Origin: Paraspadella gotoi
Taxonomy: Eukaryota > Animalia > Chaetognatha
Length of the DNA stretch: 64,000 bases
Direction: 5' to 3'
Assembly: GCA_051294375.1 (NCBI GenBank)
Contig: CM119265.1
Location: 403,305 to 467,304 of the forward strand
In this document: one piece after another, positions 2,058 to 36,279 of the stretch
Layout: every line of letters starts with the position of its first letter
Position numbering within the stretch: position 1 is the first letter of the stretch
Translations under genes and position numbers: made by a program
Notes under the pieces: model-generated
What the model was told of the DNA's origin: nothing
Database searches by the model: none
The model's input: only the letters and a program-made list of their open reading frames with translations

Positions 2058-2755
2058 TGTGGTGAGGCATATGAGTTGAACCACAGCGCGACGACGTTGC
2101 CTTACACACCTTGTGACATATGTGCTGAGCATCATGACGATCTTAGTCTTTTAGCGTTAGACGTTAGATGGCGCAGGGAAAAGTAGGTCACATGATTTGT
2201 AGATTATATTGAAACGTTTATAATTAATATTTGAAGCGAGATTAAATATGAGATTAATATTAAACGTTTGTTTATTAAGATTCGTTGTGAGATTATTAAT
2301 TCGAATGAAGAATAATTAATTGAAGATTAATTTATTTTATTGGATTAATAATTTCACTTGTTGTAAAATCGAGTTCTCATCATTTAATGTACTCAATACA
2401 TTTCGGGATAGATTTAAAACAATGTTTTTTAATGTTGTTTTAACATTATATTAACGAGATCAAAAACAAGAGTAAAATGAATCAGACTTCAATCATTGAA
2501 GTAAACAGTTAATAAAACAAAAGCAGTTGAAATGGCGGTAAGACATCTCTAGTTGAGTTCTATTAATCTAGGAAAAACAAAAGGCTTCGTTCTTGGTTTA
2601 AAGCTTTAAAACAGGTTTTAATCTGGCGATAAAACATGGCCTCTTGGTTGGCTGAGAGGTTAAACTCGAAGCGTCCCAAGCCTGAGTTCGAGGTTCGAAT
2701 CCCGGCTGCTGGATGAATTATTTTCTCACCAGATAATTCGCTCAAGTTGGCCGCA
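2058..2755 (-). repeat. 5' LTR of E1 (family A, ~700 bp)
   Basis: TGTGG...CCGCA termini on +; bounded by the PBS and by ACCCT telomeric repeat; blocks of similarity to the family C LTR (e.g. AAAACAAAAGGCTTCGT, TCGAAGCGTCCCA). Confidence 0.82.
2638..2712 (+). ncRNA. tRNA-like Pol III type-2 promoter module inside the family A LTR
   Basis: A-box TGGCTGAGAGG 2649-2659, B-box GGTTCGAATCC 2692-2702 (43-nt spacing), TTTT at ~2721; cloverleaf incomplete. Confidence 0.7.
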
Positions 2756-2785
2756 ACCCTACTAACCCTTAACCCTAACCCTAAC

Positions 2786-2822
<37 letters not shown>

Positions 2823-2949
2823 CCCTAACCCTAAACCCTATACCCTAACCCTAACCCTTAACCCTAACCTACCCCTAACCCTAACCCTAACCCTAACCCT
2901 AACCCTAACCCTTACACCAACTGCTAACCCTAACCCTTACCCTTAACCC
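2756..2949 (+). repeat. Telomeric (CCCTAA)n spacer
   Basis: Direct reading. Confidence 0.98.
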
Positions 2950-3333
2950 TGTGGCATAAGGCGCTAAGTGGGCGAAGATGACTATCCGTTAACTCTCTAT
3001 TACCTCCCTCTAGCAGACCATGGAACGAGTCCTGGGCTCTTGCGATACAGGCTTGAGGGTTCGCCAACGCCCCCAAGGCCGGCTTACCCGGCCGTCCTCA
3101 CTCTTCCCGCAAGGTCAGCTACCGGCGCTTGTGCATTTGAACCCGGCTGAAACCGGGCCTCCTGGTCCCAACGGTGTTTAGCGACCGTCCCTCCCATTTT
3201 TGACCTGAATTGTGGTCCATGAGCCCGAATCGGCGTCTGTAGCTCAAAATGAGCCACCGGGGTCCACATACTTGAAAAGCAGTTCTATGCTTTATAGGCT
3301 GGGGGTTTGAACCATTGCAATGCCCCGACTACA
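2950..3333 (-). repeat. TRIM 3' LTR
   Basis: Aligns by eye with 3468-3797 apart from an ~60-bp extra segment near 3150-3210; adjacent to the PPT. Confidence 0.8.
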
Positions 3334-3467
3334 TGCCCCCCCAGATTGTCAACCCACCCTGCACTGCTTTCCAGCTGGAGGGAGGGGAGCAATTCGTTCG
3401 CGCACGTCATGGGCCTGATTCAGAAGGTGGGAATACGCATCGACAGGATGCACGGTCTCTCACCAGC

Positions 3468-3797
3468 TGCTGGGAATAAGGCCGGCTAAGTGGGCGCCTT
3501 GAGTTATGACTATTTCCCGTAACTTCTTATATACCCCCTCTATGCAGCACAATGGAACGGCGTTCCTGGGCTTTTGCGAACCAGCGCTGAGGGCTTTCGC
3601 CACGCCCCCAAGGCGGCCTGTACGGCCGTCCTCACCTCTTTCCCGCAGGTAGGTACCGGCGTTGATTGAACCCACCGTAGCCTTAGTGGTCATGAGCTGA
3701 TGCGCTGTTTACTCAATGAGCCACTCGGGTCACACTGAAAGAGGTCATGCTTATACGGCGCGGCACCCTGTGACACCTAGGCAATGCTCGGACTACA
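3468..3797 (-). repeat. TRIM 5' LTR with sense-oriented tRNA-like A/B boxes
   Basis: Minus strand TGGCTCATTGAG (3723-3712) and GGGTTCAATC (3673-3664); adjacent to the PBS. Confidence 0.8.
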
Positions 3798-4212
3798 CCA
3801 CTAACCCTAACCCTACTTACACCGCTAACACCATAACCCTAACCCTAACCCTACTAACCCGTACCCTAACCCTAACCCTCAACCCTAACCCTAACCTAAC
3901 CTACCCTAACCCTAACCCTAACCCTAACCCTTAACACCCTAACCCTACCCTAAACCCTAAACCCTTAGACAAACCACCTAACCCTAAACCCTAACCCGTA
4001 ACCCGACCCTAACCTAACCTACCCTAACCCTAACCCTAACCCTAACCCTGACTAACTCAACCTAACACCTAACCCTACCCTAACCCTAACCCTAACACCT
4101 TAAACCTAACCTAACCCTTAACCCTAACCCTACCTAAACCCTTAACTAACACCTAACCCTAACCCTAAACCCTAACCCTATACCCTACCCACACCTGACT
4201 AACCCTAACCCC
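3798..4212 (+). repeat. Telomeric (CCCTAA)n spacer
   Basis: Direct reading, with many indel errors. Confidence 0.97.
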
Positions 4213-5068
4213 TGTTGGCGCGGCGTGCATATAGTGGAGCCCCAGACTTGACGAAGCACCGCTACGCCGTTAAGTGTAGTGTCACTAGACTCTTACAGAC
4301 ATTCCAAGCCAGATAATTAATGAATGATTAGCTTGGGCCGCAGGGAATCTTTGTGCGCTATTCTGAATGTATATCAGTTTTATTCGCTAGACGGCAGCAG
4401 TAGCAATCAGATGGTCCGTCGTTTAGTCTCTTTCGAATTAGGCACCATTAAGGACGGTTTTAATTTAGCAGTTGAAATTAAACGGAGTTAATGTTAGTTC
4501 GAGCATTAAGAATCTTTGAGACTACTACCGGTTTTTAACACTTCTTTAATTCAGCCGCATCTGAATCATTCTTTCAGAATTAGCAGCATTCTAATTCTTT
4601 AGATTTTATTTCGATTTGATCTTTATTTTCTCATGTTTTTAATGTAGCTATTTACATTTTAGTGAGAGATTAAATATAAAACAATGAGATCAAATCATTA
4701 CGTATTCATGTATTATTTGACATGAACATTAACAAAACCGCAACCTTGCATTTCAGATCTAGAAAACACAAACTCTCAGAGCGATAACACAATCGATTGC
4801 AGCAGCAGCTGGCCGAAATGATTTGGCGTACCGCCCTCCTGACGGAGGAAACCAACTAGTTTTGTAGGAAACAAATAGATGTACATACGCGAATATCTGT
4901 TTTAAATGCTTTAGGTTCGAATTCGAATTCAATTCGATTTTCAGAAGCCAGTTTAGCGCTTGCGCTATAATCGCTGGGCTTCTCGCACTCTTCACGATAC
5001 CAGGATCGCAATCCTAGATCGGTGGCCGCATCTATTTATACAATAGTAGGTCGATCGAAGCATCTTCA
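4213..5068 (-). repeat. 3' LTR of E2 (family B)
   Basis: Direct repeat of 10688-11443, 11560-12309 and 16076-16824; ends ATCTTCA followed by TCCCCC (PPT). Confidence 0.9.
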
Positions 5069-5399
5069 TCCCCCTTGCTGATTAAATATATAATCTTTAT
5101 AATATTTACATTAAAATTTGAAAGTTAATAGAATTAAAATTGTTGTCGCTCCGGTAATGTGCTGTGATTGTGTACAAAATATATAAACCGTATTTCTTAA
5201 CATTGCGGGTAAATCGTAGTTTCATTTCGACGAATTGAAATAAAAAATTGACCTAGATTTCTAGAAATTGACGAAGGTATAAAATCTGTACAAATAAATT
5301 ATTGTAAAATACTGCTAAATTGGGTTTTCCCAAGAATACTTTAATATACAAAAACAACCAAAATATTTATTCTAATAATGGCTTAAGGGAGCTCGGCCG

Positions 5400-8300
5400 T
5401 CGAAGTCAATGCCGAGGGTGCGATGCTGTCATGGAGGCGAGATTTTCAAGCTGACTGGCTTCGACCGGTTGACCTTAAGGCGGCAAAATTATTTGGTTTC
5501 TATTTTCTACTTGGATTTTTCTTTTGCTGTCCCTGCTTGATCAACTCTTTCTGCAGGAACCTCCCAGCGGCGATGCTTAGGGGCGTTCGCGTCGCACGCT
5601 TTGTGACCGCCTTGTTCGAAAAGTTCGTTGGCAGCGTTTGGCTCTCGAGCAATACGCGCTAATAGCGTTGGTGCTTCATCTTTTTGCTCCTCTCGGCTTA
5701 GTTGTGCTTTGTCTGTTGTTCTAACTGATTGTCTCTTTTTCTCTCGCTACGTACTGAACGTTCGTTAGCGTTGGTCAATGTCCATCCGTCATGGCGAGGT
5801 GCGCTGACAGGTACAAGGAAGGGAAGGATGGGTAGCCAAAAAAAACGCGCGGGAAGGAGGGGGGTTGTTGCCGGGGAAGTGGGGGAAGGTTTTGGTGCGC
5901 CTGCCGGTCGGCGGGAAGGATGCGCAGGATGCGACGGAGGAGGAGCGAGGGAGGAGGTAATTGGAGGAGGGCACAGCTGCGCGCGTTGGATTTGCTCTAT
6001 TCGCTGCGGCCGAGGTGAGGTTCTTGACTGTCGGCGCGTGGCTGCCCTGCGTTCTGACGCCAGCTGTGCGGCGGTCTCGCCCTGGCCTTGCTCTCTGGAT
6101 GTCCTCTGCGGCGGGTGTCGACCTCCAACTCGTCGTCACTAATCCATGCCGGTTTTATTCTGGCGATGTTGACGGTTTCCCTTCCCACGTTTGGAACTTC
6201 GATTGTCATATTTAGCCCGTTTCGGCTAATAACGCGGTAAGGACCGTCATAAGGTGGCACCAAGGGGGGGTGTACGCCTGCCTTGCGTACAAACACGTAT
6301 TTTGCAGAGTCGAGATTTGCTGGTAAATGCACCGCGGGCTGTCGGTGGGCGGAAGTAGGCGTGGGCTGGAGTCTGGCGACCTCGATACGCAATTTCGCCA
6401 ATTGATTCTGACGTTGTCGATTTAGAGAGTCGTTGTCGGGTTGAATGTCGCCGAGTAAGCTTCCAGGGACGCTAAGACCTTCGCCGAAGACCAGATCCGC
6501 CGCGGAGGCGCCGATGTCCTCTTTGATTGTCGTTCTAATCGCGAGTAACGTCAATGGCAATTTCCAGTACCATTTCTCTCTCGATTCTTTTGTCAACGCC
6601 ATAATTGACTCTTTGAGCCGTCTGTGAAATCTTTCCACAAGCCCATTTGCTTGTGGATGATATGCGGTAGTTGTCTGATGTTTTATGCCCCAGTTTTTCA
6701 TTAACTGTTGCCATAATGTCGAACAAAACTGACTACCTCGATCTGTGGTTATGACGGCCGGCGTTCNNNNNNNNNNNNNNNNNNNNNNNNNNNNNNNNNN
6801 NNNNNNNNNNNNNNNNNNNNNNNNNNNNNNNNNNNNNNNNNNNNNNNNNNNNNNNNNNNNNNNNNNNNNNNNNNNNNNNNNNNNNNNNNNNNNNNNNNNN
6901 NNNNNNNNNNNNNNNNNNNNNNNNNNNNNNNNNNNNNNNNNNNNNNNNNNNNNNNNNNNNNNNNNNNNNNNNNNNNNNNNNNNNNNNNNNNNNNNNNNNN
7001 NNNNNNNNNNNNNNNNNNNNNNNNNNNNNNNNNNNNNNNNNNNNNNNNNNNNNNNNNNNNNNNNNNNNNNNNNNNNNNNNNNNNNNNNNNNNNNNNNNNN
7101 NNNNNNNNNNNNNNNNNNNNNNNNNNNNNNNNNNNNNNNNNNNNNNNGAATTATGTTAAATATCTTCTTTCGCCATGCAGCTGGGACGAATGGGCGAGCT
7201 GGACCATTAGATATATCCACTAGTAATTCTTGTTCACCCACGCGGATTTTTCTAAATGCAANNNNNNNNNNNNNNNNNNNNNNNNNNNNNNNNNNNNNNN
7301 NNNNNNNNNNNNNNNNNNNNNNNNNNNNNNNNNNNNNNTTTCGAAGTCAATTTCGAAGCTGGTCATAGACGCTATTACAGCGTTGACCTCCTCGAGGCGG
7401 TCAGGCTTGACGCTGCGCTCGAGGTGATTCTCTCGTTGCTCTTCTGATGTGGTTGTTGAGGGTGATGCTTCCTCCGTGGGTGGTTGTGTTTGCGTTATGG
7501 GTGGTGGATTATTTGGTCGTGAGAGGGCGTCGGCCACCACATTGGCCTTTCCTTTCAGATAGCGGATATCTGTGGTGAATTCCGCTATTGCCGACAACTG
7601 GTAGGACTGACGAAGAGTTTGAGGTTCCGTTTTTTTGCGGATTGCCGAGACCAAGCTCTGATGATCCGTATAAATCGTGAACGCACGACCTTCGACCCAG
7701 TGCCGGAAGTGGCGGACTGCCCTGAACGCTCCGAAGAGTTCCTTGTCGAAGGGTGGCCACATTTTTTGATTTTTGGCTAATTTTGCTGAAAAAAACGCTA
7801 GTGGTTCCCACCCTTTGGGACCTCGTTGCTCCAGAACTGCGCCTACAGCTTGATCAGATGCGTCGGTAGTGATGCAAAGCTGCGCGCCGGACCTTGGATG
7901 ATGGAGTAGTGCCGCCGAGATGAGGCCCTCCTTGATGGCCTCGAATGCTTGCTCGCACCCTGGTGTCCAATTCAACGATTTTGGCTTGCCGCTTAAGGCG
8001 TCGTACAGAGCGGCGCAGCGGTGGGCGACTCCTGGAATGAAACGCCTATAATAATTAACCATACCAAGGAAGCGTTGAAGCTCCTTGATAGTGGTTGGGC
8101 GTGTCGTCTCTCGAAGTGTCTGGACGCGTTCAGGTAGTGGTCGGACGCCGTTTTTGTCGACGAGGAATCCCAAGAACTCGAGGGACTCCTGTCCGAGTAG
8201 GCATTTTTTCGTATTTACTACGAGTCCATTTTCATCCAGAGCTTTGAAGACTCTTTCCAGATCTTCCAGGTGCTCCTCCGGAGACGATGATGCGACCAAA

Positions 8301-9385
8301 ATGTCGTCTAAGTAGACGAACGTATGGGGGATCTCACCCAAGATCTCATCCATCAAACGCTGAAAGTCTTGTCCTGCGTTTTTCAAACCGAAAGGACAAC
8401 GAGGAAAGANNNNNNNNNNNNNNNGAGTGATTACAGCCGTCTTTTTTACATCTTGAGGATTTACCGGGATTTGATGATAACCTTTGAGCAAGTCTATCTT
8501 CGAGAAGATAGTCTTGCCCTCCAGTTGCGCGTTGAAGTCCGTTAGTAACTTCACTGGGTAACGATCCTCGACGGTCTGGGCGTTGAGGCGACGGTAGTCG
8601 CCACAACNNNNNNNNNNNNNNNNNNNNNNNNNNNNNNNNNNNNNNNNNNNNNNNNNNNNNNNNNNNNNNNNNNNNNNNNNNNNNNNNNNNNNNNNNNNNN
8701 NNNNNNNNNNNNNNNNNNNNNNNNNNNNNNNNNNNNNNNNNNNNNNNNNNNNNNNNNNNNNNNNNNNNNNNNNNNNNNNNNNNNNNNNNNNNNNNNNNNN
8801 NNNNNNNNNNNNNNNNNNNNNNNNNNNNNNNNNNNNNNNNNNNNNNNNNCTTTGAGTTCGAAAGTAGGAGTGGACAATGAGGGAAACGACTCAAGCAGCT
8901 TGTAATATTTTTCCCCTTTTCTGTCTACGAAATTCACATGAGTTGGCTGCTCCTCCGCTGTCGACGCTGCTAATGGTCGAGTAAGTCCCTTTAGATCTAA
9001 GAGGAGTCGCGTCTCGATGATTTTGGCGCCTAAATAGTTTTGCTGGCCATGAAATCAGCGCCTAGGATATGTTGCTTCACTTCCGCTACGACAAACTGGT
9101 AGTCGAATTTTCGATTTCCAAGTTGAACAGGTGCTTTGGGTATACTAGTGCGCTATAGGCAGTCGGGGATGTTTGAGTTCCGTTGGCTGCTTGCAATTTC
9201 AATGAGCGGTTCTGGGCCATTTTTTCGCTGCTGGGGAGTAGGCGGAATGATAGATAGTAGGGCTCCGCCGTCAATTAGCCACTTAATTCGATTCCCGGCG
9301 TNNNNNNNNNNAAGTAGTTTGTTGGGTGCCGGTGAAGAGTTCGAGGTTAGGGGGACGGCGTTCACCTGCGTCGTACCCCCTTTCC
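5400..9385 (-). CDS. pol: Pol polyprotein of E2 (PR, RT, RNase H, IN), broken by N gaps and indel errors; 3' end approximate
   Basis: WLIDGGAL; [24 protein letters not shown]; [27 protein letters not shown]; [36 protein letters not shown]. Confidence 0.9.
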
Positions 9386-10500
9386 GTTTCCCTCCTTCTT
9401 CTTCTGTGTCTCGTCAAAACGGGAACAACCTGGCTCGCCCAGGGACAACGGGTCACTCCCAAATTTCACATGCTTTGGAGCAAAGAGTTACAACAAGCTT
9501 CGCTTTTCCTTTGTTTTTTGACGCTTGCTGGTTTCGTCGCCTGTTGTTGTTGTTGTTCGACGACTTGCGAGGGCGCTGATCGACCGCGTTGATGGCGTCG
9601 TNNNNNNNNNNGTCGGAGTCGAACTGATCTCGACGACCTTTTTCGATTGCGTTTACTAGAGAAGTCGTTTGGCGGAGCTTCAAATTGCCTTCGACGTCGT
9701 AATGATGATCGGCTAATTTGCATAATTCTTTAGCTGAGATGCTATCCGCTTTCTCCTCTAGTTGTCGTCGTATATCCGTTGGCAGCTCGCGGAGTATTTT
9801 TTCCTTACGTATGTCGTCGACGCTGACGTTGCGCGTTTTTTCCTCNNNNNNNNNNAACATCTTCGATGGTTTAGCGCTGTCGAGGTTTAAAGCGTCGAGA
9901 AGATTGGCGGCTTGCTGCCGCCTCGTGAGGCCGTATTCACTCCTCAGGTAACTGACGAATTGCTCCCAAGCTGCTTCAGACGGTTCTCCAAATAGGTATT
10001 GATTAATCCTTGGATCTACATTTATACCTATTTTAGATTCAAGATGTGCGAATTTAGTCCTTGGATTCGTGATTCCCGCGCGGACGTAAGCAGCCTCGAT
10101 TCTCTTTATCCATACTTCGATATTATTTTGATCGAAGTCCGGAAGCTCCGGTTTCCGGCTTGAAACGCGTTCCAATGCGCGCGTGGCGGCGGCGAGGGCG
10201 GCGCGGAGTTCGTCATTCTCGTCGCGTAGGACTTCTTGCCTTCGGCTGTCAGATTTGGAACTGGTGGTCGGTCCTCCAGTCGCCAGACGGCGTCGTTCTC
10301 GTTCGCGTTGCCTCGTAGTGAACGTGAAGGTCCGGCTCGGGCGTCGAAAAAACGCCGGCGAGATGGAGCGCAGAAACTGTTGCCCTCGGCCAAACCGAAT
10401 GGGACTTGGAGTCTTAATCTCTTCGTTCCGACGATCCTCTGCCGCGGCGCTCGCGTTGAGTCTTGAGCGTAGACGCGAGTTCTAAATCGTATCCGCTCAT
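9362..10500 (-). CDS. gag: Gag of E2 (frame-broken in the assembly)
   Basis: ORF 9453-10175 is homologous to E1 Gag (KPELPDFD..NIEVWIKRIEA); inferred ATG at 10500, stop at 9362; GGGAAAC slippery site 9386-9392. Confidence 0.85.
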
Positions 10501-10687
10501 CGAGGTCTTTTTCTCCGTCGAATCCGTTTAGAAGTGGGAGAAAAAGGGAAAAAAACGTGTTGAGAAGATTGGGAGACTACTCACTTAATCCCGAAATTTC
10601 CAAACCCAATCTCACCTCAGAGAAGGTATTTTCCGCTGGCGTTACTCCCCTTCGTTCGTTGGAATTGTTCTCAGTCGTTCTCACCAT

Positions 10688-11443
10688 TGTGGCGGGTTAT
10701 ATAGTTGAGCCACACTTGACGAAGGACCGCCCTAGCGTTAGTGTCACAACTCTAAGACATTAGCGCGATAAATATGGATGATAGGCTTGGCTCAGGGAAT
10801 TCTGTGGCCGCTATATAATTATATCAGGTTTATTCGTGACGGAGAGTAGATCAAGATGGCTGTCGTTAGATCTTCGAATTAGGCACATTAAAGACGGTTC
10901 TTATAGCAGTTGAAATAACGGAGTAATGAAGATTCGAGATTTAAGATCTTTGAGACTACTCGGTTTTTAACTTTTTTAATTCAGCGATCGAATTCTTTAG
11001 ATTAGCAGATTAATTCTTTAGCATTAATTCGATTGAATTGTTTTTTCTCATGTTTTAATTGTAGCTATTACATTTTGTGAGAGATAATAAAAAAACAAGA
11101 GTATCAATAGTTATTTCATGTTATATTTGTCATGAAACATAAAAACCGAACAAATGATTTCAGTTAGAAAACAATTCTCAGAGGTAAACAATGCATTGCT
11201 AGCAGAGCGGCGAAATGATTGGTAGCCCTCTGACAGGGGAAACAACTAGTTTTGTAGGAAACAAATGATCAACGAATATCTGTTTCTAAATGCCTTTTAG
11301 GTCTCGAATTCGAATCAATTGATTTCAGAAGCCAGTTTTAGCGCTGCGGCTAATCGCTGTTCTTCGATCTTCGATACCAGCGGATCGAAAATCCTCATCG
11401 GGGCGATCTATTTATTAAATAGTAGGTCGATCGAAGATCTTCA
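10688..11443 (-). repeat. 5' LTR of E2 (family B, ~755 bp)
   Basis: TGTGG...CTTCA; PBS on the left, ACCC telomeric repeat on the right. Confidence 0.9.
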
Positions 11444-11559
11444 ACCCAAACCCTAACCGCTAACCCTAACCCTAACCCTAACCCTAACCGCTAACCCGTC
11501 TACCCTGAACCCTAACCCTAAACCCTAACGCGCTAACCCTAACTCCTAACCCTAAGCCC
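11444..11559 (+). repeat. Telomeric (CCCTAA)n spacer
   Basis: Direct reading. Confidence 0.97.
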
Positions 11560-17590: not shown

Positions 17591-17749
17591 TCCCCCCCTG
17601 TCGATATTTATACTTAATAATAAATAATCGCAACACATATTTACAAAATAAACTGTACAATGTCCACAATCAATTACTGACCTTACGAAAAAAAATTGAA
17701 AAATTCAAAGATAATATCAAAATACAAAAATACTAAAAAAACTCTACAT

Positions 17750-21905: not shown

Positions 21906-23061
21906 GTTTCCCACCTCCTTTCTTCTTTCTTTGGGGTCGATCGAAATTCGCGCAGCGCCGGATGCGTCTGCCGACGACCCACGCGTCTTCTCCGAATTTA
22001 ATTGTGCTTCGAAAGCACAATGCGTGAGTTTGCTTTGCTCCTCACTTTTCTGGTTTGGAAGAGGTCGTCGCGTTTGTCGCCTTGTTTTCCCGTTGAGCGG
22101 GCTATCGATTGCAGTTGACGGTCTCATGTCCTCCAACATCGCATGTCGAATTGTTCCCTTCGTTCTTGTAGACGTGGCTGATACAGAGAGATTGACGTTT
22201 GTTTATATTTTAAGATTCCCGTCCCTTGTCATAGTAACGATATCGGCGATCTGGCAAAGCTGATGGGCAGTGTACGTGTCGAGTTTCGTCTCGTCAGTTG
22301 CTCCGGCTTCGATCTTGTGTATCGTAGTTCGCAGCCATATATTTTTTCTTTTCACGTCAAGTCTAGGCTTAGGGTTTATTGTTTTAGTTTTCGCTTCACG
22401 CCAGCTGGCTCAGCATCTTTTGATTGGCTTCGAGCGTCTGACATCGAGAAGGCGTCGAGGAGGTTGTCAGCTTTGTCGTCGACGAGTCTAAGACCGCTAT
22501 TTCATTCGGAGGTACTCGATTAAACTGGGACCTAAGTTGTCACTCCGTGCCTCGCCAAACAAAATAACTTGGTTGATGGTTGGAGGTCGAGGCGCTAATG
22601 TGTATCTGTACGCTTGGATTCAAATGAGGCAATTTGTTGCGCGGTGCGAGTGATGCCGGCTCGCTAGTGTGGCGATTCGACGATTCCGACTCTTTTGATC
22701 AGATCTCAATGTTATTTAACAATCGAAATCTGGCAGTTCTGCGTTTTCGATTATTGAGGCACGATTCTAGGGGCTGCGCGTAGGCGGCGGCGAAGGGCGG
22801 CGCGGAGCCATCGTCTTTCGTCTGTAAATCTCAGTGGGAGAGCCGCGCCTTGAAGTCGCTGCTGTGCCATGCCGACTGTGCGTTCTCTGTTCGACTGAAA
22901 GTGATCCGGCGTCGCCGTCAGCGTAAGGCCGCGTGATGTGAGTCGTGAGCCGACTGGTCCTCTGCCAAACCCGCCTGGGTGCTGAAAGTAGTCGGTTGGC
23001 GTCGTCGGCTTCTCTTGAGACTGAACAGGAAGTCTTTGCGCGTGTTTTCGGGCCCACTCAT
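21878..23061 (-). pseudogene. gag: gag of E4, heavily frame-broken (probably sequencing error)
   Basis: Nucleotide collinearity with E5 gag; inferred MSG start; GGGAAAC and hairpin at the 3' end. Confidence 0.7.
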
Positions 23062-23834
23062 GTGATTCGAATTTGTCCCAGTCGTGTCACCAGGGGGTAA
23101 GCGTGGAGAAGAGGAAAGAAAAAGGGACGAGCGTGAGCGGATTGGGGTAATCAGCCTAATCCGAATTCCTTCCTCGGCCCCAATCTCACCTCAAAGAGTC
23201 TTTTCCCTGGCAGGTGTCCCCCTGCTTGAGTTTGCAAGGCTTGTTTCAATTATAACGAGTCTCTTGTTGTTTCACCATGTGTGAGATCTGACACAGAGAC
23301 ACTGCAAAGCGGATGTCAGCAGGATGCGTCAGTAGACATACAGCCCGAGGCAATCCTTTGAAGTCTTTGTCGCGAGCATTGTCGATTATGCAATGATGGT
23401 GCGAGTCTATTGAGAGAACGGAGACCAGTGGAAATGACCGAGCAGCAATCACGGTTTGCATGGGAGAACGTGCACCGATGAATAAATGCTTTTTTGTGTG
23501 TTATTTATACATTCGAAGTATTTAATTAGATTGAGAAGAGATAATTAAGTATTCAAAATACAGAGTCAAGAGTCCATTATCATGTCATAATATGAAGTGA
23601 ATGAGGACACTCTAACTTAAATAAGAGGAGTCAATCTTACTTTATTTAAATAGTTCGTATACAGTACAAATGATAGGTCATATGTATTTGCATCTCTCAC
23701 TTTCAATTATAATAATGTTATTTATTATCATGTATATGATGAGATTAAGTAAAAATATCTCTACAGATATCTTTGACTGTTTTTACCTGAGGAGTAGAGA
23801 CATATTACANNNNNNNNNNNNNNNNNNNNNNNNN

Positions 23835-26048
23835 TCTTCGAGAAGATCGTCTTGCCTTCGAGCTGCGCGTTGAAATCAGATAACAGTTTTACCGGATAGC
23901 GATCATCGACGGTTTGGGCGTTGAGGCGGCGATAATCGCCGNNNNNNNNNNACCCGCCGTCCGGCTTTGATACGACATGGAGCGGAGAAGACCATTCAGA
24001 TTTGCCACGTTTGGCCACCCCAAGGGCGACCATCTTCTCCAGCTCGCGTTTTGCGACGGCAAGCTTTTCAGGGTCGAGTCGACGGGCTCGTGCTTGGCAG
24101 GGCCGTCCCTCCGTCGGTATGGAGTGAGTTANNNNNNNNNNNNNNNNNNNNNNNNNNNNNNNNNNNNNNNNNNNNNNNNNNNNNNNNNNNNNNNNNNNNN
24201 NNNNNNNNNNNNNNNNNNNNNNNNNNNNNNNNNNNNNNNNNNNNNNNNNNNNNNNNNNNNNNNNNNNNNNNNNNNNNNNNNNNNNNNNNNNNNNNNNNNN
24301 NNNNNNNNNNNNNNNNNNNNNNNNNNNNNNNNNNNNNNNNNNNNNNNNNNNNNNNNNNNNNNNNNNNNNNNNNNNNNNNNNNNNNNNNNNNNNNNNNNNN
24401 NNNNNNNNNNNNNNNNNNNNNNNNNNNNNNNNNNNNNNNNNNNNNNNNTCCCGTAGCAAGCGATAGCTGACCCGTTTGCCGCTTGTAGCTTCATGTTTAG
24501 ATTTGGGCCTTGATCGCGCTGTTGTTTTGTAGGCGGGACAATTGACNNNNNNNNNNCTCCGTCGATTAGCCACCTCGTTCGATCCCCGGCGTCTCTGATG
24601 TAGATAAGGTCGCTTGACGCCGGTGATTTAGTAGNNNNNNNNNNNNNNNNNNNNNNNNNNNNNNNNNNNNNNNNNNNNNNNNNNNNNNNNNNNNNNNNNN
24701 NNNNNNNNNNNNNNNNNNNNNNNNNNNNNNNNNNNNNNNNNNNNNNNNNNNNNNNNNNNNNNNNNNNNNNNNNNNNNNNNNNNNNNNNNNNNNNNNNNNN
24801 NNNNNNNNNNNNNNNNNNNNNNNNNNNNNNNNNNNNNNNNNNNNNNNNNNNNNNNNNNNNNNNNNNNNNNNNNNNNNNNNNNNNNNNNNNNNNNNNNNNN
24901 NNNNNNNNNNNNNNNNNNNNNNNNNNNNNNNNNNNNNNNNNNNNNNNNNNNNNNNNNNNNNNNNNNNNNNNNNNNNNNNNNNNNNNNNNNNNNNNNNNNN
25001 NNNNNNNNNNNNNNCGGTGACGTCGTCGGCTTTGTCTTCCAGTTGTCGCCTGATCTCGATTGGTAGTTCGCGCATTATCTTTTCTTTTCGGACGTCGTCT
25101 AGGCTTAGAGTTTTAGTTCGCTCCTCCAGCTGGGCCAGCATTTTTGATGGCTTGACGGCGTCGACATCGAGAGCGTCGAGGAGAGTTGCAGCTTGTCGTC
25201 GACGAGTTAGACNNNNNNNNNNNNNNNNNNNNNNNNNNNNNNNNNNNNNNNNNNNNNNNNNNNNNNNNNNNNNNNNNNNNNNNNNNNNNNNNNNNNNNNN
25301 NNNNNNNNNNNNNNNNNNNNNNNNNNNNNNNNNNNNNNNNNNNNNNNNNNNNNNNNNNNNNNNNNNNNNNNNNNNNNNNNNNNNNNNNNNNNNNNNNNNN
25401 NNNNNNNNNNNNNNNNNNNNNNNNNNNNNNNNNNNNNNNNNNNNNNNNNNNNNNNTGTTATTAACATCGAAATCTGGCAGATCTGGTTTTCGATTCGAGG
25501 CACGTTCTAGGGCGCGCGTGGCGGCAGCAAGGGCGGCGCGGAGCTCATCGTTTTCGTCTTGTAAATCTCGTGGAGGCGCGCCTGAAGCTGCCGCTGCTGC
25601 CATGCCGACGTGTGCGTTCTCCGTCGACTGAAAAGTGAATTCTGGCGTCGCGTCAGCGAAGGNNNNNNNNNNNNNNNNNNNNNNNNNNNNNNNNNNNNNN
25701 NNNNNNNNNNNNNNNNNNNNNNNNNNNNNNNNNNNNNNNNNNNNNNNNNNNNNNNNNNNNNNNNNNNNNNNNNNNNNNNNNNNNNNNNNNNNNNNNNNNN
25801 NNNNNNNNNNNNNNNNNNNNNNNNNNNNNNNNNNNNNNNNNNNNNNNNNNNNNNNNNNNNNNNNNNNNNNNNNNNNNNNNNNNNNNNNNNNNNNNNNNNN
25901 NNNNNNNNNNNNNNNNNNNNTAATCAGCTAATCCCGAATTCCCTCGCCCAATCTCACCTCGGAAGAAGTTCTTTTCCGCTGGGTCCCCTTGTCTTGAAGG
26001 TTGGCTTTTCTTTCGTCGTCGGTTTCACCATGTGTGGCACTGACACAG
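23835..26048 (-). mobile_element. Partial family C copy E5 (LTR edge, PBS, gag, PR, RT start), mostly N
   Basis: ORF 24566-25603 is Gag-like and ORF 23761-24573 encodes an RT N-terminus; PBS TGGTGAAACCGAC 26018-26030; near-identical to E4 21040-23295. Confidence 0.8.
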
Positions 26049-26504
26049 NNNNNNNNNNAGGTACAAAGGCTACATGCCCCCCAGATAAAATTCGGGGACA
26101 TTCGTTATTTTATCTAAAAATTAATACATTTTGCCTTTGTATAAAGTATTTAAACGGTAAAATGGGACTTTTCGTTTAAGTGTGGGTTAAATTGTAACAT
26201 TTAACCTATAAATTCATCGAGATATTGTAAAATAGATAATTAAATACTTCGAAAAGTATTTATCGAAACAATTGTAAAGGTAACGGAGGGGAAACGAATT
26301 AAAATTAATTCGTTAACGGTAAGTTGAATAATTAACAGTTGTAAAGATGATTCTTTGCTGTTCTTACAGCATGGTACAATTGAGTTGACGATTTCGACGG
26401 TAATAATCACGTAACGGAACGATTTGACAGAAATCGTTAAAGTTTTGAAAATACAAGTTTAAAAAGAGGTGAATTAGAATAAAGTTTGTAAAAGACTGAC
26501 CCGT

Positions 26505-26920
26505 TCACGAGTTTGTTGACGATGGATCCTCATTGTTTATTTGTTGCAAATAATGAGCGAGGACTGCAGCGTAAGAACGGCCTGTTGGGTTGACGCTCGA
26601 AATTTGGCGCCTCGAGGCGCGGTAAGAGAAATCTTCTGGCGTTGGCCTTGAGAAGAATGAGGGGCGAGTGGGGGGAGGGGAGACGGGATCAGGTTCAGCA
26701 TTCGTTGGCGTCGACGTTGACGTCTCGATCGGATCTTTGGCGTCGTCGTTATTATCGTCGTCGGCTTTGTTTACTTTATTGTTTACTTTTTCCCTCGATT
26801 TGTTTATATTTGTGTTTAATGGGGGGAAATCGAGATTTGAAAGCGGATTTAAGGTCGTTGGTGGTCGAACGTCGTCTGGGGATGGGAGAGGAAGGTTCTG
26901 TGGAGGGGGGGGGGAGGGGG
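26505..26920 (-). CDS. Probable continuation of the integrase C-terminal tail in a shifted frame
   Basis: ORF 26505-27128 overlaps the pol end and crosses long G homopolymers (26904-26922) where an indel is likely; reads as a Pro/acidic linker ending FFSRPTPEDFSYR...GRSYAAVLAHYL. Confidence 0.45.
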
Positions 26921-29900
26921 GGAGGAGAGGAGGAGGAGAAAGGAGGAGGAGGAGGAGGAGAAAACGTGGTTGAATCATTTCGCCTCGCATTTGATCGTAG
27001 CGTTCGAGTCGATGGAGCTGGGTGACGAGTTCTGACGCCGGGGCGACGGCCCGGCGGAGGAGGCGACGGAGGCGGCGATGGCGTGCGTGGCGGAGAGGCG
27101 TTGCCGGAAATGGCGTCGTCGGCTTCATAAGCGGGTTTTAAGCGGGAAATCGACACGTTTTCGTTGCCTCGACCTGGGATCGCGATTCTGAACGTTAGTT
27201 GATCACGAGATATGACGCGATACGGACCCAGGTAAGGCGCTGATAATGACGAGGCCACGCCCCCGCGTCGAACGAATACGTGGGAGGCGTGGCTTAGAGC
27301 GTTAGGGAGGTGGATTTGAGGTTGACGGTGAGTCGTTGTCGGGGCTGGCTGGAGGCGCGATACTTCTAGTTGAAGGTTAGCGAGCGTACGACGCCGCTGT
27401 TGACGTTCGGCGGCGTCACTTCCGGTTTGAGTCGATAAAAGGTCTCCGGGTACTGCAATTGCTTCGCCGTAGACCAAATCTGCTGGCGAGGCGCCTACGT
27501 CGGGTTTAAGCGTCGTTCGAATGGCTAACAGGGCGCAGGGGAGGCGCCAGTACCAATCTCCTCGAGTATCAGCGCCTAGAGCTATTAGTGCTTCTTTTAA
27601 TCGGCGATGAAATCGCTCGACTAATCCGTTAGATTGGGGGTGATAAGCTGTTGTGAGATTGTGAGTAATTCCCCATGAGGCTAGAAGTTGTCGCCAAGTT
27701 GATGAGAGGAATTGAGAGCCTCGATCCGTTGTGATGGTGGCCGGGACGCCGAATGAGGCTATCCAGCCATGGACGAGAGCATCGGCGACGGTTTTGGCTG
27801 CTATATCCTTCATTGGGATGGCGGCGGGCCATCGCGTAAATCTGTCGACTACAGTGAGGATATAGTTGAAGCCGTTGGAGAGGGGTAAAGTCACAATGTC
27901 TACGTGGATATGATTAAAGCGACGTTCTGGGAGCTCGAAGGTGCCGATTTCCGGGATTGTATTCCGCGTCACCTTCGCCCGTTGACAGTCTTGGCACTCT
28001 CGTGCCCACTTCGAGACGTCGGCTCTCATTGATGGCCAAACGAATTTTTCTGAGATCGTTTGTCGCGTCCGTTCGACTCCAGGGTGGCCGAGATTGTGGA
28101 TAGTCTCGAAGATGCGGCGGCGCCACGCAAAAGGAACGAAGGGGCGTGGCGGGCCGTTGCTGACGTCGGCGATGATCGTAGTAGTGCCGAGTGGGATTTG
28201 GCGAAATCTCAATCCAGATGTCGAGTCGCTCGTGATGCGCTGGAACTCGGCGTCGAGTGGTTGATCGGTCGCCATCTTTTCGATGTCGATGCCGTGCTGA
28301 AGGATCGAGTGGACGATTTGATCGAGGTGTTGACGTTTCTCTTCCGGGACTTCTTTTGATATTGAAGCGACAATCGGGGGAGGTGAGGGAGCGGGGGCAG
28401 AGAAAGAAGGGAAGAGAGGTTGTGGAGTGGGTGAGGGAGGGGGAGAGGAGGGAAGGGGAATTTGTTCCGGTTCCTTCTCGGCGTTAGGTCGGGAGAGGGA
28501 GTCGGCGACGACGTTGGCCTTCCCTGCCAAATATTGTATGTCGGTTGTATACTCCGCGATACCTGCTAATTGGTAGGTTTGTCTCGCTGTGTGTGGTTCA
28601 GTTTTTTTGGCGAGAGCGGGAATTAATGATTTATGGTCAGTGAAAAGTGTAAATTGGCGGCCTTCAATCATCATTTTAAAATGTCGAATTGCTCGCCAAG
28701 CGGCGAGCAGCTCGCGATCAAAGGGTGGCCACATTTGCTGGTTTTTTTGTAATTTTGCCGAGAAAAAGGCCAAGGGTTCCCAACCCTTCGGCCCTTTTTG
28801 TTCCAGCACCGCTCCAATTGCTGTGTTCGACGCGTCAGATGTAATTGCCAATGAGGCGCCGGGACGTGGGTGGCACAACATTGTGGCTTGTGCTAATGCG
28901 TTTTTAATGGCCTCGAAAGATTTTTGGCATTCGAGAGTCCAGTTCAATATGCGTGGCCTCGATTTCGACTTAAGGGCCTCGAATAATGGGTATAAGTGGT
29001 GCGCTGACCTCGGGATAAAGCGCCTGTAGTAGTTGACGAGGCCTAAGAATCTTTGTAACTCCTTAATGGATGTTGGAGGCGTTGTTTTGTTTATGACGGC
29101 GACTCTGTCCGGTAATGGCGAGATGCCGTTGGCGTCGACTCGATATCCAAGGAACTCGAGTTCTGATTTACCTAGAACGCACTTCTGTCTATTGACGACG
29201 AGTCCATTCTGGTGAAGCGTCTCGAACACTTGACGGAGGTGCTGCTCATGTTCGGCGTGGGTCTCGGAGGCGACCAAGATGTCGTCGATATATACGAAGA
29301 CGAACGGCAGGCCATCCAGGATTTCGTCCATCAGGCGTTGAAAATCCTGACCTGCGTTCTTGAGTCCGAATGGCGTGCGCGGGAAGACGTATAGTCCAAA
29401 AGGCGTGATGACGCCCGTTTTGGCGACGTCTTCTTCCGCCACGGGTATTTGATGATACCCTTTCAAGAGATCAATTTTGCTGAACACCTTTTTTCCGCTG
29501 AGGTTGGCGTTGAAGTCATTTAGAGTCTTGACAGGGTATTTGTCATCGATAGTAGCGTTATTAAGTCGTCTAAAGTCTCCACAAACTCTGTATCCTCCAT
29601 CGGGCTTGTTCACGACGAGGAGAGGCGACGCCCACTCACTTTTAGCGCGGCGAGCGATGCCGAGGTCGCAGAGTTTGTCTAGTTCTTTTTTAGCCACCTC
29701 TAATTTGTCGGGGGCTAGACGACGGGCTCTTGACTGCACTGGCCGGCCTGTTGTTGGTATATAGTGCTTGACTCCATGTTTGGGCTCGGTTGGCTGAAAA
29801 GAGGGTGTGCAAAGGTTGTGATAAGCGTCAAGAAGTTTATAGTATGGATCATCAGCTTGGTGTAAAAAATTTACTCGAATGGGTTTTTGTTTGTTTGCCT

Positions 29901-30303
29901 TAAACGCTGGGATTGTGCTGAAATCATTCAGGTCAAATAAAAAACCATCACGATGGTTAGGGGCCAGATAATGTTCGGCCAGGAAATCTGAGCCGAGTAT
30001 AGGTTGAGTGACGTCCGCTATGGTTACCACGAAGGGAAATTTTCGCCTTCCAAGACGGACCTGGACGTCTCGATAACCATAGCAGGAAATGGGGGAGCCA
30101 TTGGCGGCTTTGAGTTTGGTTTGAGATTCTCCTTTTTTCCTCTCCTCTCTCGTTGGGGGAACAATGGAGACCGTCGCTCCGCCGTCGACGAGCCACTGCA
30201 GCTTGTTGGCGGCGTCATAGACGAAAAGGAGTGAATCTGTTGTATTGGTAGATTGGCCGGTCGGGATGTAATTCACCTCCTCCCGCCGGCCTTCCCGTTT
30301 TCC
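26776..30303 (-). CDS. pol: Pol polyprotein (PR-RT-RNase H-IN), intact, expressed by -1 frameshift
   Basis: 1198-aa open frame; WLVDGGA, YIDD, DASN, HNLGHPG..CQDC, DDE core, GPY/F module, Pro-rich extension. Confidence 0.96.
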   Translation of the reverse strand, partial: GKREGRREEVNYIPTGQSTNTTDSLLFVYDAANKLQWLVDGGATVSIVPPTREERKKGESQTKLKAANGSPISCYGYRDVQVRLGRRKFPFVVTIADVTQPILGSDFLAEHYLAPNHRDGFLFDLNDFSTIPAFKANKQKPIRVNFLHQADDPYYKLLDAYHNLCTPSFQPTEPKHGVKHYIPTTGRPVQSRARRLAPDKLEVAKKELDKLCDLGIARRAKSEWASPLLVVNKPDGGYRVCGDFRRLNNATIDDKYPVKTLNDFNANLSGKKVFSKIDLLKGYHQIPVAEEDVAKTGVITPFGLYVFPRTPFGLKNAGQDFQRLMDEILDGLPFVFVYIDDILVASETHAEHEQHLRQVFETLHQNGLVVNRQKCVLGKSELEFLGYRVDANGISPLPDRVAVINKTTPPTSIKELQRFLGLVNYYRRFIPRSAHHLYPLFEALKSKSRPRILNWTLECQKSFEAIKNALAQATMLCHPRPGASLAITSDASNTAIGAVLEQKGPKGWEPLAFFSAKLQKNQQMWPPFDRELLAAWRAIRHFKMMIEGRQFTLFTDHKSLIPALAKKTEPHTARQTYQLAGIAEYTTDIQYLAGKANVVADSLSRPNAEKEPEQIPLPSSPPPSPTPQPLFPSFSAPAPSPPPIVASISKEVPEEKRQHLDQIVHSILQHGIDIEKMATDQPLDAEFQRITSDSTSGLRFRQIPLGTTTIIADVSNGPPRPFVPFAWRRRIFETIHNLGHPGVERTRQTISEKFVWPSMRADVSKWARECQDCQRAKVTRNTIPEIGTFELPERRFNHIHVDIVTLPLSNGFNYILTVVDRFTRWPAAIPMKDIAAKTVADALVHGWIASFGVPATITTDRGSQFLSSTWRQLLASWGITHNLTTAYHPQSNGLVERFHRRLKEALIALGADTRGDWYWRLPCALLAIRTTLKPDVGASPADLVYGEAIAVPGDLLSTQTGSDAAERQQRRRTLANLQLEVSRLQPAPTTTHRQPQIHLPNALSHASHVFVRRGGVASSLSAPYLGPYRVISRDQLTFRIAIPGRGNENVSISRLKPAYEADDAISGNASPPRTPSPPPSPPPPGRRPGVRTRHPAPSTRTLRSNARRNDSTTFSPPPPPPFSSSSPPPLPPPSTEPSSPIPRRRSTTNDLKSAFKSRFPPIKHKYKQIEGKSKQ
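30255..30303 (-). promoter_or_regulatory. -1 frameshift signal (G GAA AAC plus hairpin)
   Basis: pol is in the -1 frame; GGAAAAC, 5-nt spacer, GGCCGG-CGGGA...TCCCG-A-CCGGCC stem. Confidence 0.75.
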
Positions 30304-31355
30304 GATTGATACTTGTAACAGCCAACTTCGCATTTTTTGGCTGAATCGCCATATTTTTTGTGGTAGAAACAAATATCTACCCGAGATGTTTTCGACTGAG
30401 AGGGTTGATGGTTTCCTGTCGATTTGTCGGCGTTGAATGGGCGGCGGAAGGAGTTGTTTGGGCGACGAGGTGGTTGAGATGGGCGCTGTCGATTGACGGC
30501 GTTGACGTCATCCGTTATCGGCGGCTCATCCGCCATTAATGGCGTGATTGGCGTGCCGACGGCGTAAGCTGCTGCTGTTGCTGTGGGATGGAGGAGTTTG
30601 CCGTCGCGGTCGAAATACGCGTCAGCGAACTTGGCGGCGGTTTCGGCGTCGACAGTCTCGACTCTTTCAGCGAGGCTACGTTGGATTTCTGTAGGTAGTT
30701 CCCTTAAGAGAAGTTCCTTCATTATATCGTCGACGCTTACTTTGCCGGCCTTCTCCTTCATCACTGCAAGGAGTTGGGATGGGCGTCGATTTTCTCGACG
30801 GGTCCCGTCGATAAGTGACGCCGCTTGCTGAGATCGAGTACGACCATATTCTGCTCTTAAATATTCGAGGAAAGAGGACCAGCGAGTGTCGGAGGCTTCA
30901 CCGAATAAATAGGCGTTTATGCGAGGATTGTAATCCACTGGGAATTTGTCCTCCATATGGGCAAACTTCTCTTTGGGCGTTGTAGTTCCAGCGCGCGTGT
31001 AGGCGGCCTCGACGCGCTGAATCCATAGTTCCACGTTATCGGGATCGAAATCTGGCAATTTCGGCTTTTTAATCGCCAATCCTTGAAGTGATGCTGCGAG
31101 TGTGGTCGCTAGAGTGCGGACGAGCTCTGCCTGGGGATCGGGAGCGGCCGCCATCTCGTTGGACCCGGTCGGCGACGTTGGGAATTGGAAATTCGTTTGA
31201 GTAGCGAGAAAAGCCGGAGATCGTCTCCCGCGGCCGAATCCGATGCCGGAAGGAGGGACGAGTTGATTGGGACGCTCGTGAGGCTGTAGAGGGGCGTCGG
31301 CGTCGCCGTTGGAGAGCGCTGAGCGGGCCCGGGTGCCACCGGCGGGTCCGCTCAT
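30273..31355 (-). CDS. gag: Gag protein (360 aa) with CHCC knuckle
   Basis: Intact ORF; KLPDFDPDNVELWIQRVEA; CFYHKKYGDSAKKCEVGC. Confidence 0.94.
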   Translation of the reverse strand: MSGPAGGTRARSALSNGDADAPLQPHERPNQLVPPSGIGFGRGRRSPAFLATQTNFQFPTSPTGSNEMAAAPDPQAELVRTLATTLAASLQGLAIKKPKLPDFDPDNVELWIQRVEAAYTRAGTTTPKEKFAHMEDKFPVDYNPRINAYLFGEASDTRWSSFLEYLRAEYGRTRSQQAASLIDGTRRENRRPSQLLAVMKEKAGKVSVDDIMKELLLRELPTEIQRSLAERVETVDAETAAKFADAYFDRDGKLLHPTATAAAYAVGTPITPLMADEPPITDDVNAVNRQRPSQPPRRPNNSFRRPFNADKSTGNHQPSQSKTSRVDICFYHKKYGDSAKKCEVGCYKYQSENGKAGGRR

Positions 31356-31681
31356 TCGTCGTGTGGTTGATGAGGTTGGTCACGTGAAAAGCGAAAGAGA
31401 ATGATGGTGAGAGATAGGCAAGGCTATCACAGCTTCCTCATCTCGACTTGCCTACCTGAGGAGGTGCTTTATTCCGCTTGAATGTGTTGGCCCGATTCGA
31501 TTTGCTTGATTTGCTTCTTTTTCTGTTCTTGACGTTAGTTTTGATTAGATTGATTAGGCTATTTCATTGTAGAGTAAGTTCTAAGGCTTTTAAACCGAGC
31601 AGTATTTAAGTGTATAAAGACATTGATGAATAAAATCAGTTTGTAGATAGGTTTTCAGAAGGTTTTGTTTTAAGTTCTTTA

Positions 31682-31694
31682 GTCGGGGTCACCA
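31682..31694 (-). promoter_or_regulatory. Primer-binding site complementary to the tRNA-Trp 3' end
   Basis: + strand GTCGGGGTCACCA equals the 3' end of metazoan tRNA-Trp including CCA; 2 nt from the LTR. Confidence 0.9.
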
Positions 31695-31696
31695 GT

Positions 31697-32123
31697 TGTA
31701 GATATTAGACATCCTGGCACCGAGAGGATTAAAACAGGAATTGAATAAGATCGAATTATCTCCCATTAACGTCAGTTAAAAACCGTCTGCTTATATTTAC
31801 TGAGCCATCTAGGTAAGTAGTAACGAGGACGGCCGACTTGGTAACTATTATAAACAAAAGGCCGTCTGAAATAAGAAGGAAATAATTATTCCAGGTTTTG
31901 GGCGTTTTCGAGTAAAAAGTGCCCGATAGCATAATCGGTAAGACGGCGGCTTGTGGCTCTCAAGGTTGCTGGTTCGAATCCGGTTATTGCACTTCTATTT
32001 ATAATCATAATTATATAAGGGAGATTTAAATAAGTGATTTATCGATGTGAAGAATTATAAATAAGTAATTCGATCATGATTAAAATTAATATAAATTATT
32101 TGGTGCCAGGTACAAAGGCTACA
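31697..32123 (-). repeat. 5' LTR of E6 (family D, 427 bp)
   Basis: Perfect TGTAG...CTACA termini; followed by ACCCTAA. Confidence 0.92.
31917..31994 (+). ncRNA. tRNA-like Pol III module inside the family D LTR
   Basis: A-box TAGCATAATCGG 31927-31938; B-box GGTTCGAATCC 31971-31981 in a GCTGG/CCGGT T-stem; AAGTGC/GCACTT closing stem; TTGTGGC loop resembling tRNA-His. Confidence 0.75.
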
Positions 32124-32356
32124 ACCCTAACCCTAACCCTAACCCTAACCCTAACCGCCCTAACCCTAACCCTAACCCTAACCTAACCCTAACCCTAACC
32201 CTAACCCTAAACCCAACCCTAACCCTAACCCTCTAACCTAACCCTAACCCTAACCCTAACCCTAACCCTAACCCTAACCCTAACCCTAACCCTAACCCTA
32301 ACCCTAACTACGCCTAACCCCTAACCCTAACCCTAACCCTAACCCTAACCCTAACC

Positions 32357-32393
<37 letters not shown>

Positions 32394-33241: not shown

Positions 33242-33279
<38 letters not shown>

Positions 33280-33720: not shown

Positions 33721-33751
<31 letters not shown>

Positions 33752-34101: not shown

Positions 34102-34132
<31 letters not shown>

Positions 34133-36246: not shown

Positions 36247-36279
<33 letters not shown>

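Follow-up and report, generated by a model that had tools for sequence, protein, structure and literature searches.

The window, the whole 64,000-nucleotide stretch of Paraspadella gotoi DNA that was analysed, carries seven LTR elements set among arrays of (CCCTAA)n; all seven lie on the minus strand, and the arrays are read on the plus strand. E1 (1-2755) is the 5' part of an LTR retrotransposon, with an RT fragment, gag at 783-1874, a primer-binding site (PBS) at about 2049-2055 and the 5' LTR at 2058-2755. An array of about 30 units (2756-2949) separates it from E2 (2950-3797), a non-coding, TRIM-like element resembling Helenus, with an LTR at 2950-3333, a polypurine tract (PPT), about 135 bp of internal sequence, a PBS at about 3459-3465 and a second LTR at 3468-3797. 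After about 65 further units (3798-4212) comes E3 (4213-11443), a full-span LTR retrotransposon with N gaps and LTRs at 4213-5068 and about 10688-11443. About 18 units (11444-11559) lie between it and E4 (11560-16824), a noisy E3-family copy, interrupted by an assembly gap (12659-12758), with LTRs at 11560-12309 and about 16075-16824, and about 19 units (16825-16939) precede E5 (16940-23760), which has a 3' LTR at 16940-17590, an integrase ORF at 18638-19669 and a 5' LTR that starts at about 23280 and is broken off. E5b (23835-26048), either a second copy or a fragment from the E5 family, is gapped and has no array junction. Only E2, E3 and E4 have arrays on both sides; E5, E5b and E6 are joined across gaps without one. 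Beyond E6 (26059-32123) runs a long, noisy array of about 10 kb (32124-42284). Just inside it lies a diverged relic in the opposite orientation, and an island at 32830-33104 matched no LTR (highest z 3.3 over 22 comparisons). The adjoining subtelomere holds a 5.3-kb tandem duplicate.

E6 is the best-preserved element. It begins with a 3' LTR remnant (26059-26074) and a PPT from 26075. Its pol ORF (26776-30507, 1243 aa from stop to stop) encodes, by Pfam, protease, reverse transcriptase (YIDD), RNase H and integrase (H2C2, DDE core, GPY), with a proline-rich tail. The end of this tail, with a conserved F(S/T)xP..F(S/T) motif, lies in a frame (26505-27137) that differs from that of pol in this assembly. 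The gag ORF (30273-31379) contains a CX2HX9CX3C (CHCC) motif, and the PBS (31681-31694) is followed by the 5' LTR (31697-32123; TG...CA, 426 bp in short-read contigs), in which an antisense tRNA-like A/B-box segment lies at about 31918-31993. A tRNA-like segment is also carried by the E2 LTR, where the A and B boxes were read by eye and gave no ARAGORN or Rfam hit. Real tRNAs in the LTRs were supported neither by ARAGORN and Rfam, which gave no hits, nor by folding (z -0.4 and -0.7).

To judge from their sequence, the elements are CsRn1-type Ty3/gypsy LTR retrotransposons of five families. The order PR-RT-RH-IN is found in E6 pol, between LTRs with PBS and PPT. The CHCC motif is present in E6 and E1 and was not found in E3 and E5, whose gag ends are noisy. 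On the sense strand the E6 PBS reads TGGTGACCCC, as in relatives, and the other families retain only TGGTGA(A/G). This PBS may match tRNA-Trp, the primer of the CsRn1 clade. E3 and E4 are 96.8% alike and E5 and E5b 95.4% (gap-free columns), and the remaining pairs among E1 and E3-E6 are 64-74% alike. In an integrase-only tree of unnamed relatives and one jellyfish protein, with no named CsRn1 sequence included, the window elements and L008, a metagenome relative, fall within a 54-row clade apart from other relatives (SH-aLRT 100, branch 0.82). E2 has the anatomy of a Helenus TRIM, with two LTRs, a short non-coding interior, PBS and PPT, and its right junction is noisy. Non-LTR telomere elements lack LTRs and rely on an endonuclease plus target-primed reverse transcription; the elements here have LTRs and a DDE integrase, so that they are like SART/TRAS and MoTeR in target and are not members of those groups. 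A search for relatives in viral contigs found none.

Nine junctions between element and array had been quoted in an earlier note, and all nine coordinates were exact when the window was read again. Right junctions read CA|ACCC at 2755, 11443 and 32123 (three of five in the window), CA|ACCT at 16824, and CA|CCAC, a noisy reading, at 3797. The left junctions all read CCC|TG (4/4), as ACCC|TG at 2950 and 16940, CCCC|TG at 4213 and GCCC|TG at 11560. Thus eight of the nine fit ...ACCC|TG...CA|ACCC and one is noisy, which bears out the claim of a single insertion phase. The terminal TG and CA belong to the LTRs and are not borrowed from the repeat: identical LTR ends recur internally beside the PBS and PPT, and short-read runs X1 and X5 each give a 426-bp contig of the E6 LTR that covers exactly 31697-32123. 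In a 6-bp repeat the length of the target duplication is defined only modulo 6; it is taken as 4 bp because the LTR pairs of non-telomeric relatives have a 4-bp duplication in 9/10 cases. With this figure, the ACCC register (modulo 6) and the CHCC motif, the CsRn1-type assignment and 4-bp duplication proposed earlier stand. With families counted once, the chance of one phase is (1/6)^4 = 8e-4. The phase shared by the five families is real and exceeds what chance would give.

Short reads bear on the same junctions, in a check that covers E6. The E6 5' junction region (32099-32134/5) is crossed by contigs in all four runs (four samples, two studies). The alignments are gap-free and have 0-4 mismatches; at least 6 would be expected from a shift in phase. 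Detection at the 32123 end is one-sided because the reference included those 12 bases, so that only same-phase, same-polarity junctions are detectable there. At the 3' LTR end of E6, the only flank besides the PBS side, among those listed, is ...TAACCC (2/4 runs), and no opposite-polarity flank, which would be visible at this end, occurs among the loose ends listed. Longer contigs of further LTR families end in a junction of the same register (X5 record 14, X6 records 22 and 23, X8 record 28). Contigs of this kind lose rare variants, and the assembly may itself derive from one of the runs.

The claim that all seven elements share one orientation also held: none of 31 inter-element BLAST hits is on the opposite strand, and PBS, PPT and retroelement ORFs all lie on the minus strand. 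The chance of one orientation is about 0.06 by family (five) and 0.016 counting all seven elements. The elements are transcribed toward the chromosome end only if the arrays are terminal, a position not visible in the window.

From one phase and one polarity the earlier note had argued for asymmetric recognition, tethering or strong selection, and this argument survives for polarity only. TA[ACCC]TA reads TA[GGGT]TA on the other strand, which makes it a dyad register, and a two-fold symmetric intasome can therefore choose it. The phase by itself needs no asymmetry. The idea that ACCC is the sole dyad register was wrong, as CTAA is likewise dyad and the repeat has two. MLV, whose integrase also makes 4-bp staggers, prefers T at -2 and A at +5 (PMC4477651), and of the six registers TA|ACCC|TA alone satisfies this preference on both sides. 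An inherited target preference was considered and rejected: a symmetric matrix from nine distant non-telomeric insertions (of 16 long loci examined, 10 had a clear LTR pair, and L049 was dropped for a 3-bp match) has T at -2 in 10/18 and G at -1 in 9/18 and did not favour the ACCC register, which came top in 385/2000 bootstraps against 480/2000 for random sites. L008, at 58% amino acid identity, ends in variant CCCTAA-type repeats as CA|GCCCTAACC, that is, in the same register as the window elements and with the opposite polarity. Polarity is not fixed across the clade. In the window, polarity does call for asymmetry, tethering or selection, with modest support from five families (p about 0.06) and from the lack of an opposite-polarity flank among the listed loose ends of the E6 LTR.

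The reading that we prefer, at a probability of about 0.5, is that five families came to lie at one register and in one polarity because their integrase is targeted to TTAGGG repeats by a tether in its tail. A symmetric intasome would make 4-bp staggered insertions at TA|ACCC|TA, the dyad register flanked by TA, and the phase would thereby be fixed for elements facing either way. The conserved motif that ends the proline-rich tail would bind a telomere-associated host protein and so bring the intasome to the repeats; since the repeat is asymmetric and such a protein would sit on it in a single direction, polarity would be biased. The non-coding E2 would have been inserted in trans by the same machinery, and repeated insertion would have split the array into the short spacers of 18-65 units. 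Both elements of this scheme have precedents. In Ty5 targeting, a six-residue integrase domain binds Sir4 (PMC7175516), and the insertion bias of Ty3 needs an asymmetric target (PMC6673722). The tail motif is present in E6 and E4, and in 85 of 111 close homologues that have the tail, against 1 of 54 distant loci. However, it may not be specific to telomeres, because telomeric repeats occur at only 1/79 loci retrieved and L004 has the motif yet runs for 1.5 kb beyond its PPT without the repeat. The matrix result, the reversed polarity of L008 and the oppositely oriented relic in the long array also count against this reading. The tail showed no DNA-binding domain, and when the integrase tail of a relative was searched against the atlas, no match scored above 0.78.

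The same picture could arise if insertion were targeted and phase-specific but blind to polarity, and inward-facing copies were then removed by selection, for example because they are transcribed against a replication fork that moves outward, or because read-through over the repeats yields C-rich RNA. The dyad symmetry of the register, the ability of the clade to insert in reverse seen in L008, and the fact that the copies seen here are fixed, inherited ones all speak for such selection; the polarity common to a non-coding TRIM and four coding families speaks against it, as does the lack of a listed opposite-polarity flank at the E6 LTR end where one would show, though rare variants are dropped there. 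We regard it as unlikely, if credible. Direct readout is quite unlikely: here the integrase alone would recognise the asymmetric repeat, or a structure of the G-rich strand, beyond the 8-bp core and so set site, phase and polarity without a host tether. A base-exact register over diverged families would suit direct readout, and so would the observation that palindromes at population level can mask asymmetric individual sites (PMC6673722, citing Kirk 2016). Yet at the position that corresponds to the target-contacting residue beyond the second catalytic Asp there is the common Ser, and the surrounding DRGSQF (in E3, E5, E6 and 100/120 homologues) also occurs in 3/9 non-telomeric relatives; the tail, as noted, offers no recognisable DNA-binding domain.

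About as improbable is that a few founder insertions spread by recombination among chromosome ends, with polarity a matter of chance and only phase owed to the integrase. The near copies E3/E4 and E5/E5b, the subtelomeric duplicate and the value of p = 0.06 for one polarity over five families would fit, but each family requires its own integration, and more LTR families show the same junction in short-read contigs (where the opposite junction is not detectable). Finally, a noisy long-read assembly might have stitched the elements through telomeric repeats. The N gaps, LTR copies only 75-84% identical where near-identity is expected, the fusion of E5, E5b and E6 without arrays and the placement of elements outside the 10-kb array are what such stitching might leave. 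But both E6 junctions occur in short-read contigs of other samples, and an assembler would not produce one register at five different LTRs. An artefact is thus very improbable: for the junctions it is largely refuted, though how many elements there are, and in what order, may still reflect it.

Targeting by an integrase tether, the preferred reading, can be set beside several known systems. CsRn1, PwRn1 and AgCR1-14 share with the window elements a CHCC gag, the order PR-RT-RH-IN, a TGGTGA-type PBS, TG...CA LTRs and a 4-bp duplication, but the duplications seen in the table of the paper on that clade vary (AAGC, AACT, CGTC and GGTT among them) and show no repeat as target (PMC2582038). The window elements differ from CsRn1 in their separate integrase clade, long proline-rich tail with its end motif, and tRNA-like LTR segments. 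Helenus TRIMs of animals resemble E2 as short non-coding LTR elements with PBS, PPT, a tRNA-like LTR and a 4-bp duplication (PMC10886601); the string "telomer" is absent from the main text of that paper, and in the window the coding elements have tRNA-like LTR segments too, in antisense. Ty5 of Saccharomyces is an LTR element whose integrase carries a short motif; by binding a host protein, this motif steers the element to chromosome ends (PMC4700185, PMC7175516). However, Ty5 belongs to Ty1/copia, and its target is silent chromatin around telomeres and mating loci rather than one set base in the telomeric repeat. Ty3 of S. cerevisiae, likewise of Ty3/gypsy, is targeted to an exact position, and an asymmetric target gives it an insertion bias (PMC6673722), but it inserts at the start sites of Pol III genes instead of telomeric repeats. 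In SART/TRAS of Bombyx and MoTeR/FoTeR of fungi, which occupy chromosome ends or telomeric repeats, each family keeps one orientation, and that of SART is opposite to that of TRAS (PMC10088271, PMC12857005). These are non-LTR elements that use target-primed reverse transcription, and their polarity is set by the nicked strand, whereas polarity is not built into the symmetric DDE integrase of the window elements.

In the literature searched, no description was found of an LTR retrotransposon that inserts into telomeric repeats: the telomere-repeat-specific retroelements found described are non-LTR, and Ty5, the LTR element of chromosome ends, targets silent chromatin. Tentatively, a whole Ty3/gypsy clade might have evolved a DDE integrase that a short motif in its tail carries to telomeric repeats, for insertion at one base and in one polarity, as an LTR counterpart of SART/TRAS. 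The outward LTR promoters of such a clade would then transcribe the G-rich strand into TERRA-like RNA, chromosome ends would grow through its insertions, and the tail would serve integrases as a portable tag that directs them to telomeres; we hold this broader view to be possible rather than probable. If LTR integrases of several families do strike a single base of TTAGGG, this enzyme class gains a new target specificity; the pure repeat is also an unusually clean target for seeing how a symmetric intasome acquires phase and polarity. The finding may also bear on host telomere transcription and length, and on tools for safe-harbour integration.

The LTR elements occupy positions 1-32123 of the window on the minus strand, interspersed with (CCCTAA)n arrays at 2762-2950, 3801-4211, 11443-11560 and 16826-16940. 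A long (CCCTAA)n array of 10 kb follows at 32123-42284, and beyond 42284 lies repetitive AT-rich DNA. The earlier note observed that the elements sit at one phase of the telomeric repeat and in one orientation, and this observation is confirmed. When the nine junction coordinates were re-read in the sequence, all were exact. The right ends read CA/ACCC in three of five cases (the slash marks the junction), CA/ACCT in one and CA/CCAC in one, and the left ends read CCC/TG in four of four. The outermost TG and CA are part of the LTRs, because identical ends reappear beside the PBS and PPT. None of the 31 inter-element BLAST matches lies on the opposite strand. The seven elements fall into five families: E1, E2, E3/E4, E5/E5b and E6. 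Over gap-free columns, E3/E4 are 96.8% and E5/E5b 95.4% identical, and the remaining pairs of coding elements are 64-74% alike. The assembly of the window is noisy, and eukaryotic. Arrays are present on both sides of E2, E3 and E4 only. The order in which the elements lie outside the long array may reflect an assembly join; polarity relative to the G strand is independent of this. At 26033-26074, an E5-family LTR start and the final 16 bases of the LTR of E6 meet across 10 N without any array between them, which is probably an assembly collapse.

E6, the best-preserved element, is present, whole or in part, in nine public runs from three studies. Four runs (four samples, two studies), one of them possibly the source of the assembly, were compared with 31480-32135; this check covers E6 junctions only. 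In two of the four, the E6 LTR is a 426-bp contig with exact ends at 31697 and 32123. Contigs spanning 32099-32134/5 were found in all four, gap-free and with 0-4 mismatches; at the E6 5′ junction, at least six mismatches would result from a phase shift and at least eight from the opposite strand. Longer contigs with other LTR bodies (records 14, 22, 23 and 28, among the records listed) finish in the identical junction, and therefore additional families share it, in a design that at the 32123 end could reveal only the same phase and polarity. For the 31697 end, where any flank would be visible, a loose end ...TAACCC was seen in two runs among the rows listed; a G-strand flank was seen in none of the 22 loose-end rows listed, from contigs that drop rare variants.

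With each family counted once, the chance of a single phase is p = 8e-4 and that of a single polarity p = 0.06. Phase and orientation had together been taken to indicate asymmetric recognition, tethering or selection. This interpretation is supported in part: a phase beyond chance and the 4-bp duplication stand, but a symmetric intasome could also produce the phase. Because the repeat is 6 bp, duplication length is defined modulo 6, and 4 bp was adopted from nine of ten LTR pairs of relatives. A dyad exists in two of the six registers and adjoins the duplication only in TA[ACCC]TA. LTR target motifs are described as generally palindromic (PMC3276498), and MLV as preferring T at -2 and A at +5 (PMC4477651). 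Inheritance of the preference from distant relatives is without support in a target matrix of nine distant non-telomeric insertions, in which ACCC was not favoured (385/2000 bootstraps vs 480/2000 for random sites). In L008, a related locus with 58% identity, the sense strand runs from a PPT through 400 bp of LTR-like sequence to CA/GCCCTAACC at the 3′ LTR-like end and on into variant CCCTAA repeats (L008 1593-2100; LTR end inferred from one copy). Its register equals that of the window elements, whereas its polarity is opposite.

The pol of E6 encodes protease, RT, RNase H and integrase, arranged as in Ty3/gypsy elements. The gag of E6 and E1 contains CX2HX9CX3C, the CHCC motif described as the signature of the CsRn1 clade, which makes 4-bp duplications (PMC2582038). 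Judging by where CsRn1-type elements are known to occur, the host is probably an invertebrate animal. The non-coding E2 resembles the Helenus TRIM (PMC10886601). The integrase tree, built from 118 rows (quick search, midpoint root, without any named CsRn1 sequence), places E3, E5 and E6 with 51 other sequences, most of them taken from public assemblies and metagenomes, in a clade separate from the remaining relatives (SH-aLRT 100, branch 0.82). Clade integrases carry a long proline-rich tail ending in F(S/T)xP..F(S/T). This motif is present in 85 of 111 tailed homologues (from 120), and in 3/11 clade loci, several of them cut short, vs 1/54 distant loci. E4 and E6 both have it, in E6 in a frame that differs from the pol frame in the assembly.

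Polarity is not supplied by a symmetric intasome alone. An integrase tether acting through the candidate tail motif is the first choice, because the motif exists and there is precedent: a six-residue domain of Ty5 is reported to bind Sir4 (PMC7175516, PMC4700185), and Ty3 to show insertion bias on an asymmetric target (PMC6673722). The probability of this mechanism is put at about one half. Selection or founder chance may instead lie behind the common polarity, as may direct readout of the target; an integrase target-contact residue is treated in PMC5053271. Against a fixed polarity rule stand the opposite polarity of L008 and the modest count. The rarity of telomeric repeats, seen in only one of 79 fetched loci, also counts against it; most clade contigs stop before the flank, but L004, another related locus, is without repeats over 1.5 kb beyond its PPT.

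The LTRs of the coding families contain tRNA-like A/B-box segments antisense to the element (2637-2712, 4945-5050, 11325-11410, 17460-17545 and 31918-31993), lying less than about 200 bp from the 5′ end of the LTR. ARAGORN and Rfam made no call on them; the B box is common to sister LTRs in short-read contigs. Antisense B-box-like words also occur 3′ of the integrase in L001, L002, L003 and L004, which belong to the clade and come from other organisms, near the pol end or in the LTR region. The E6 LTR has a subterminal inverted repeat (31697-31725, 32099-32123), both ends starting TGTAG with CCTGGCACC a few bases inward. In L006, PBS-like and LTR-like stretches that belong to a different element lie reversed directly after a clade-member integrase (4915-5290), possibly a nested insertion.

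Within the long array, a non-repeat island at 32830-33104 ends in ...TATCTACA/ACCCTAA, resembling an LTR junction in equal register; it gave no alignment to the LTRs, and poor read quality in this segment may account for it. A diverged related element is represented by its 3′ end, with the PPT and part of the LTR, on the plus strand at ~42290-43300 and 47687-48700, both copies included in a 5.3-kb tandem duplicate (42317-47586 / 47687-52784, 92%). The first copy faces the opposite way from the window elements and lies directly inside the long array. It adjoins the inner end of that array by its truncated interior, not its LTR, and thus makes no integrase junction; the contact may be telomere addition at a break. 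Plus-strand segments at 44210-44452 and 49514-49756, in non-telomeric DNA, match the tRNA-like portion of the LTR of E2 at ~72%, with no recognisable E2 ends at either place; they may belong to a SINE that is related to this LTR.

The telomeric elements named in PMC10088271 and PMC12857005 are non-LTR. No LTR retrotransposon inserting into telomeric repeats was found described in a literature search that covered few subscription journals and few Repbase entries. A prior description is conceivable, and the new aspect may be a CsRn1-type clade that inserts into telomeric repeats at one register.
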